A stretch of DNA of 64,000 nt, from assembly GCF_055900595.2 (NCBI RefSeq), contig NZ_CM148325.1; one strand, written 5' to 3'. The first letter of the stretch is position 1; each line of letters starts with the position of its first letter. Both the position numbers and the translations under genes were made by a program. The notes beneath the pieces were generated by a model, which ran no database searches, was not told where the DNA came from, and saw nothing but the letters and a program-made list of their open reading frames with translations. This document shows positions 58,265-59,360 of this stretch, in pieces.

Positions 58265-59360
58265 ATGCGGGTGTTCAACTTATATTCTAACAACCAAGTT
58301 TCCGTGATTTCCCGTACGTCATTCAGCATTCTGAACAGATAAAAATCGAGTATTTCTGTACGGTATGTCAGGTTAAAATGTTCAATGAAAGCATTCAGCG
58401 TCGGTTTACTTGTTTGGATAAACTCCAGTTTTACTACGTGTTTCTCTGCTCATTCAGCCAGTGCCAGAAAGAGAAATTCCGGGTAGTTATCTACGCGAAG
58501 TATGATCGGATAGCTACAGTTTGCTGCGATACTGTCGGGTACACTTACCACTCGTGGAACTGGCAGACGCCGATCGATTTCAATCGATAACGTCTCACGG
58601 TTTTAAAGCTATCAACGATATTGAACGTGCGAAAACGGCGAACACAGACCAGAGCATCATGCATAAAATCGACAGATCATCGTAGGTTCAGCGTTTCCGG
58701 TATGTTAGTGGCGAGGGATTACGCACCGGCAACCGCTGTTTGCCCTTACGGCGAAAATTCAGCTTCAGCAGACAGTAAATTCGGTGGATCCATTTGTGAT
58801 TCCACTAATACCCCTGCTGCCGTAAAATCTGGAAAAGTTTCGGAAAATCGTATCGAAGATAACGCTCTGCCACCGCCGACAAGGCGACAATAATGAGTTC
58901 GTTACGCGTGGTATCTGGAGGATAAAGATAAACCGTTCTGCTCAGGTTCAGACTCCGGCAGGCCTGACTGATACTGAGTCCGATCGTCGTTATCAGGTGA
59001 GTGACCTGCTCACGCTTAAAGACTGGTTTTAAAGCTTTTTTCGATAACGTCTTTCAGTGCCCAGCTCTCCAGCCTCACTCCGGCAAACATCTGTTTGAGA
59101 CGGTGGTTCCCGTCTTTAAGCTCCTTGATCTTTTTAATATCAGAAGCCTCCATGCTGCCGTACTTGGACATTCAGTTGTAGTGGGTGGCTTCAGAAGTAC
59201 CAGCCTCCCGGCAGATATCTTTTAACAGTTCGTCCGGATTCAACCGTTTTAATGGCGGCCATGAGCTGACACTCAGTAAAACGGGCTTTACGCATAACGA
59301 TTACCTTCATCGGTAGATTGGGTATGCCGGAGGATCTCTAAATATGAATGACACAATTAT
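58265..59360 (-). mobile_element. Degenerate IS3-family insertion sequence remnant (IS407-group-like OrfA, disrupted OrfB)
   Basis: Minus-strand translation from 59295 gives MRKARFTECQLMAAIKTVESGRTVKDICREAGTSEATHYN*MSKYGSMEASDIKKIKELKDGNHRLKQMFA..., an IS3-family OrfA with an in-frame stop (TGA at the expected Trp); downstream transposase-like reading is broken by multiple stops and frameshifts. Boundaries approximate; terminal inverted repeats not identified. Confidence 0.6.

Follow-up and report, generated by a model that had tools for sequence, protein, structure and literature searches.

Does the decayed insertion sequence (IS) that separates kpsS from the serotype-specific genes of this capsule locus mark the event by which those genes were brought in, or is it a passenger that merely travels with them? 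The window analysed here, a 64-kb stretch of DNA, has at its right end an E. coli group 2 capsule (kps) locus, in which kpsD, kpsU, kpsC and kpsS are encoded on the minus strand and low-GC serotype-specific genes are encoded on the plus strand, ending at position 57968. The kpsS gene (59541-60773, minus strand), which is the last gene of the conserved region 1, is an open reading frame (ORF) of 410 amino acids labelled ‘capsule biosynthesis protein’ with a match to the Pfam family Capsule_synth, and it is convergent with the last serotype-specific (region 2) gene of 525 amino acids (56391-57968, plus strand). A preliminary description, made from the sequence alone, placed a decayed IS3-family element exactly at the region 2/region 1 junction and regarded such a scar as consistent with IS-mediated recombination that had swapped in the serotype-specific cassette.

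The segment at 58171-59374 is a full-length IS3-family insertion sequence on the minus strand, 1,204 bp in length with both termini kept, as established by alignment and BLAST; it is wider than the 58265-59360 previously given, and the same limits are obtained from BLAST against intact IS elements and against a plasmid collection. Three intact relatives served for the alignment, namely those of the CFS3313 chromosome, p1604D011 and pCFSAN004178, to which PGAP assigns the label ‘IS3 family transposase, programmed frameshift’. Positions 3-1204 of the remnant align end to end with intact elements of 1,205-1,207 bp at 83-85.6% identity, and the similarity to IS transposases that the preliminary description presupposed was found in the form of 85% DNA identity over 1,202 bp to intact IS3-family elements (E = 0). 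The frame-corrected translation is identical to intact OrfAB at 281 of 371 positions and matches NCBIfam NF033516 (‘IS3 family transposase’) with 164.5 bits (cutoff 160, E 3.9e-48); the corresponding Pfam matches are HTH_Tnp_1 with 60.2 bits, rve_3 with 58.4 bits and rve with 28.3 bits, the last under its cutoff of 32.6. The combination of an N-terminal HTH and a C-terminal DDE/integrase-core domain that is characteristic of the IS3 family is therefore present. In genomes identical over this region PGAP annotates the equivalent of 58186-59295 as ‘IS3 family transposase; frameshifted; internal stop’; the element is thus already known as an IS3 transposase pseudogene in RefSeq, and its kind has been described in K-locus surveys.

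The closest full-length relatives, found on enterobacterial plasmids and chromosomes, reach only 85.6% identity, and no closer parent IS was encountered among E. coli genomes and PLSDB plasmids. The element can be referred to as a member of an IS1400-like lineage within the IS3 family, a name that comes only from a depositor’s label: one UniRef entry, identical in sequence, gives the OrfA encoded by p1604D011 the name ‘IS1400 transposase A’. We suspect that the subgroup is the IS407 group, partly from the 4-bp duplication generated by the relatives.

Terminal repeats of the IS3 family follow the form 5′-TG...CA-3′. The right terminal inverted repeat (58171-58190, minus strand), which has a 1-nt internal deletion, ends ...GGGCAATTTACA and keeps ...TTTACA with the terminal CA, and the intact relatives finish ...GGGTCTATTTACA, after which the duplicated 4 bp follow. 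The left terminal inverted repeat, TTTAAGTATCCTGCA (59360-59374, minus strand), was recognized from the alignment and begins TTTAAG where the relatives have TGTAAG, the G having mutated; the left end of the remnant is TTTAAGTATCC where that of the relatives is TGTAAGTATCC, and the intact relatives begin TGTAAGTATCCCGCA directly after their 4-bp duplications. Both inverted repeats could thus be located, the left one with its terminal TG changed to TT, but a target-site duplication was not found. The remnant is flanked by ATTA and AAAG, which differ at three of four positions, and a search by eye for target duplications of 3, 4 and 5 bp, with shifts of the IS ends also allowed for, gave no fit. 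Two of the intact relatives are bordered by GTAC/GTAC and GTAT/GTAT, and the missing duplication bears on the history of the remnant copy and not on its family. Judged by its alignment, the element is complete in length and not a truncated fragment, but it is dead.

The lesions responsible can be followed through both reading frames. The orfA relic (HTH_Tnp_1; 59036-59295, minus strand) starts with an ATG at 59295 and reads MRKARFTECQLMAAIKTVESGRTVK, so that the IS3-family OrfA earlier reported on this strand is borne out by the start, by NF033516 and by the Pfam matches. An extra A at 59223, a +1 insertion, shifts the orfA frame, and the literal ORF ends ...TVKRYLPGGWYF at a stop codon. In the frame-corrected reading, positions 59174-59172 are TGA where all three intact relatives have retained TGG (Trp); the stop at the conserved Trp position noted before is therefore real, but the continuation that accompanied it, ...DICREAGTSEATHYN, is obtained only with a silent frame correction at 59223. 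The orfB relic (DDE/integrase-core, with matches to rve_3 and NF033516; 58186-59035, minus strand) contains three in-frame stops, at 58807-05, 58679-77 and 58452-50, and four indel events. Between the two relics lies an A6G run (59035-59041, minus strand), the relic of a slippery run, which aligns with the A-run of the relatives where PGAP places its ‘programmed frameshift’. The layout of overlapping orfA and orfB with a frameshift at an A-rich slippery run, as expected for the IS3 family, is thus recognizable as a relic in which both frames are broken. Overall there are four in-frame stops, three of them TGG>TGA and one CCG>TAG, and about six indels; beyond the orfA stop and the +1 insertion at 59223 these are the three orfB stops and indels of -1, +2, -1, -2 and -1, in agreement with the frameshifted, stop-riddled transposase remnant originally pictured. 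The slippery run itself varies among the relatives. In p1604D011 it is A7, the canonical in-frame A AAA AAG with a -1 shift, and in CFS3313, pCFSAN004178 and the remnant it is A6, so that orfB lies in the +1 frame with respect to orfA; PGAP nonetheless gives all three relatives the label ‘programmed frameshift’ (alignment column ~380).

The remnant has also accumulated substitutions throughout its length. When substitutions private to the remnant were scored at columns where the three intact copies agree, 133 of 1,090 columns (12.2%) were changed, with rates of 9.3%, 11.9% and 15.8% at codon positions 1, 2 and 3, respectively, and 13% at non-coding columns; the private changes of the intact copies are concentrated at codon position 3. 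An A/T bias is seen in the remnant, with 82 GC>AT changes versus 28 AT>GC changes, and its GC content is 44.9% versus 48-50% in the relatives. The pattern of substitutions, stops and indels is what would be expected of long neutral decay amounting to about 12%, a figure in which part of the ‘private’ divergence could stem from an unsampled parent instead of decay, since identity to even the nearest live relatives is no more than 85.6%.

The remnant is fixed: all the copies of the locus that were encountered carry it. Window positions 58150-59540 are 99.5-100% identical in 39 complete E. coli genomes, and the gap between kpsS and the 525-amino-acid gene is 1,572 bp in all 24 contigs read that encode the exact 525-amino-acid protein; the remnant is present in 39 of 39 complete genomes that have the flanks (at least 99.5% identical), in 24 of the 24 contigs and in two metagenome contigs. 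Since all locus copies found are at least 99.5% identical, the decay would predate a recent spread of the K locus.

The capsule locus is probably K52. One of the 39 carriers is an O15:H18 isolate with the strain name ST69, in CC69 the most frequent K locus is K52 (PMC13171598), and kpsM (46063-46839) and kpsT (51869-52549), the coordinates of which were mapped from an identical genome, are non-adjacent, with two biosynthetic genes between them; it is on the CC69 link and this split arrangement that the assignment is based. The genes between kpsM and kpsT are a galactosyltransferase-related gene and a gene of the CDP-glycerol glycerophosphotransferase family that encodes 1,248 amino acids, and four further type-specific genes follow kpsT.

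Whether the IS bounds the serotype-specific cassette can be decided by locating the point at which similarity to other K types ends. Homology with other K types stops at 59607, inside kpsS; the breakpoint at 59606/59607 thus falls 66 nt short of the kpsS stop codon, and 232 bp separate it from the end of the IS at 59374. Direct alignment with a K1 locus gives identity to 59607, followed by unrelated sequence. A query consisting of the junction with the IS deleted was matched by 1,712 of 5,426 complete E. coli genomes, and beyond the 39 carriers the match covers only its first 82-98 bases. The end of homology is nearly constant among the sampled rows of the approximately 1,700 genomes, at query positions 94-98 with a few at 82. 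Because homology ends near the same nucleotide in the sampled genomes, the last ~22 kpsS codons belong to the variable cassette.

The segments also differ in base composition. The left flank of the IS (59375-59606, minus strand), which consists of the last 22 kpsS codons (59541-59606) and a 166-bp spacer, is type-specific with 27% GC, and the right flank (57969-58170, plus strand), located downstream of the last region 2 gene, is type-specific with 20% GC; the IS segment (58171-59374) has 45% GC and the conserved part of kpsS (59607-60773) 46%. Both flanks are restricted to the same 39 of 5,426 genomes, where they are always 1,204 bp apart. By this comparison the IS is embedded within type-specific cassette DNA and does not bound the cassette. 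Comparison of the junction with other kps loci hence places the breakpoint at 59607 and not at the IS, and the location of the element exactly at the region 2/region 1 junction has to be given up. With the IS 232 bp inside type-specific DNA, it is not citable as evidence for IS-mediated capsule switching.

An IS could nevertheless have helped to import or reshuffle the serotype cassette from such a position, by recombination between two copies, by adjacent deletion or inversion, or by composite-transposon-like transfer, and the remnant would then be the scar of that event. This would account for the lack of a 4-bp target duplication in an element whose relatives make one, and it would accord with a K locus that is rearranged elsewhere, as seen from the kpsM/kpsT split and from the inclusion of K52 among the K loci listed as rearranged (PMC13171606); moreover, for K4- and K5-like loci it has been argued that IS elements bring genes into region 2 (PMC13171598). 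Yet the 232 bp to the conserved/variable breakpoint and the type-specific, AT-rich nature of both flanks do not fit, and the same 59607 breakpoint is common to IS-free K types, for example K1, the loci of which have no IS there. Neither an IS at the breakpoint, nor a second copy at the other edge of the cassette, nor a scar common to K types was found, any of which would be looked for in an IS-bounded or IS-delivered cassette. Sensitive blastn with the intact IS and the remnant as queries detected no second copy, fragment or solo inverted repeat in the 64-kb window, the only match being 58171-59374 itself, and hence there is no composite structure. The remnant was absent from all other K types among the 5,426 complete genomes, with matches of at least 99% only in the 39 carriers and next-best matches of at most 85.6%. 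Taken together, a role of the IS in assembling or importing the cassette is unlikely.

The reading preferred here, at a probability of about 0.8, is that the IS is an old dead passenger which entered the gap between kpsS and region 2 in a single insertion and decayed there, and was not the agent that imported the capsule genes. What stands of the preliminary description is the identification of a decayed IS3-family element in the gap that separates kpsS from the serotype-specific genes; what the flanks and the lack of a second copy do not support is the IS-mediated cassette swap, for which the missing duplication leaves a small opening. According to the preferred reading, an IS1400-like IS3-family element of about 1,205 bp, which normally generates 4-bp duplications, would have transposed once into the gap between the convergent kpsS and last serotype-specific genes, a gap that would have measured about 368 bp before the insertion, with a landing spot next to a terminator-like hairpin. 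Such an insertion would harm neither operon and so could be tolerated; the transposase would subsequently have lost its function and undergone long neutral decay, leaving an inert, fixed passenger that travels with the K locus. The cassette itself would be bounded by the 59607 breakpoint in kpsS, which fits homologous recombination in the conserved kps genes and not an IS-mediated event. We infer a single insertion, and any dating of it against the cassette's entry into E. coli is likewise conditional. The absence of a target duplication may reflect rearrangement of one IS end after insertion; if each site has decayed by about 12%, the loss of a perfect 4-bp duplication by decay alone would, roughly estimated, have a probability of only a few percent.

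An allele free of the IS would join the two flanks directly, and none was detected among the 5,426 complete E. coli genomes with the IS-deleted junction query or in the 24 contigs read that encode the exact 525-amino-acid neighbour. A gapped pattern for the IS-free junction gave no matches in JGI metagenome contigs, a scan of low power because even the occupied junction is represented there by just two occurrences, and a remnant-specific 25-mer had no matches among GTDB species representatives, where no IS-free allele was found either. As no IS-free allele was found, the contiguity of the two flanks is unproven.

The hairpin (58127-58170) abuts the right IS end and has a 10-bp outer stem, AAAGCACTGC/GCAGTGCTTT; it was recognized by eye and supported by folding, with predicted energies of -19.7 kcal/mol on the plus strand and -17.6 kcal/mol on the minus strand and a z-score of about -3.8. 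It has a T-rich tail on both strands. Its function would probably be that of a putative bidirectional terminator shared by the convergent kpsS and region 2 transcripts. A simple terminator scan of 57700-59800 made no call, which is attributed to the long loop of the hairpin. This hairpin could possibly also be a preferred insertion spot.

Insertions near kpsS are not confined to this K type. The kpsS-side gap in another K type holds a frameshifted IS1, while in K1 there is no IS. IS elements are present in 28% of distinct K-locus sequences, IS1 and IS3 being the commonest families, and K4-like loci carry IS elements between kpsS and kfoC (PMC13171598). Based on the IS1 of the other K type and the published frequency of IS in K loci, the gap beside kpsS appears to tolerate IS insertions.

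A further question is whether the dead IS has acquired a use. The plus strand at 58888-59030, which is antisense to the transposase gene and lies just downstream of the frameshift site, gives a full-length match to the Rfam family isrN (RF01396); the match covers model positions 1-143 of 143 and scores 123.7 bits with the covariance model versus a gathering threshold of 44, with four broken pairs. A weak promoter-like match at 58867-58894 overlaps the predicted isrN start. The Rfam family is described as an ‘Hfq binding RNA’ from Salmonella. There, a 143-nt IsrN transcript has been detected whose gene overlaps that of the transposase STM2765; its induction comes at an early stage of macrophage infection and, when overexpressed, it raises STM2765 mRNA (PMC2330248). 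The window copy resembles that Salmonella Typhimurium locus in being a full-length, above-threshold match antisense to an IS3-family transposase gene, and differs from it in being known from sequence only, in its four broken base pairs and in having a dead partner gene.

The remnant could conceivably have been co-opted for regulation in strains with this capsule, through an antisense RNA resembling isrN or through transcription that crosses the IS between the two convergent operons, as the strength of the match, the expression and infection-induced behaviour of the Salmonella RNA and the retention of the remnant in every locus copy seen might suggest. The uniform retention is explained, though, by the near identity of the locus copies (at least 99.5%), which points to recent spread. 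Furthermore, decay has proceeded at the same rate in the isrN segment as elsewhere in the IS (10.3% versus 12.5%, p = 0.58), so that selective preservation of the segment was rejected, and its score is about 30 bits below those of intact copies. All three intact relatives match isrN as well, with 150-156 bits (extracted pieces L002 1842-1984, L003 1843-1985 and L004 1847-1989, minus strand), and the match is thus general to the IS lineage and not specific to the kps site. Co-option is accordingly regarded as highly improbable. Because all three intact relatives match, the Rfam isrN family would correspond to part of the antisense strand of IS elements of this lineage, which agrees with the published Salmonella locus (PMC2330248), and isrN annotation matches may largely flag IS1400-like copies rather than an independent sRNA gene. 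In a broader form, the proposition that the dead IS modulates capsule expression in the highly invasive K52/CC69 background, whether through an isrN-like RNA or read-through, or else that its missing duplication marks an ancient IS-associated rearrangement which contributed to the assembly of this unusually rearranged K locus, is very unlikely.

As a passenger, the element has close counterparts. With intact IS1400-like elements, which occur on plasmids of Escherichia, Citrobacter, Salmonella and Klebsiella and on E. coli chromosomes (for example p1604D011 and CFS3313), it shares its length (1,204 versus 1,205-1,207 bp) and collinearity, the orfA/orfB layout, the A-run frameshift site, the terminal sequences and the antisense isrN-matching segment, and it departs from them in its identity of only 83-85.6%, its four stops and roughly six indels, the TG to TT change and the lack of a 4-bp duplication. 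Among the IS elements described from E. coli group 2 and 3 K loci (PMC13171598), such as the KL5 IS3 remnant and those between kpsS and kfoC in K4-like loci, it is similar in belonging to a common family and in lying in non-coding DNA by kpsS, and like the K5 IS3 remnant as published it is fixed in every copy of its K type; unlike the described K-locus IS elements, it has no cargo gene and overlaps no capsule gene. As a homology patch of the kind proposed for KL5-1 the remnant would be poor, since it is too diverged, its longest identical runs with live copies being 40-44 bp. The corrections gained here are that the IS is full-length, that it would be old, with about 12% neutral decay, and that it lies inside type-specific DNA; it is otherwise ordinary.

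Other copies of the lineage were encountered away from capsule loci. An intact copy is located just downstream of druE of a Druantia system (piece L002, 1-2688), and a decayed copy is located beside brxL of a BREX system (piece L015, 7072-10566); both of the copies whose surroundings were checked are thus at anti-phage defence loci and not at kps. A chromosomal match in GN02461 at a kps-like coordinate was set aside, as it is actually beside a BREX island.

The K locus carries further traces of mobile DNA and of gene disruption. In some genomes with the locus an IS1 truncates the gene for an acyltransferase of 829/833 amino acids (piece L007, 1-565 and 607-2868), and in some carriers the acyltransferase gene and a gene encoding 248 amino acids are split by frameshifts (pieces L009, 2908-3652, and L010, 383-3652); these are possible capsule-modification or capsule-loss variants. 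On the kpsF side, in sequence past the right-hand limit of the window, a partial fragment of an IS110-family transposase lies upstream of kpsF (L001, 7063-7245), and the kpsF flank of the locus also holds a CP4-like island with YeeU/CbtA toxin-antitoxin, antirestriction and DUF932 genes.
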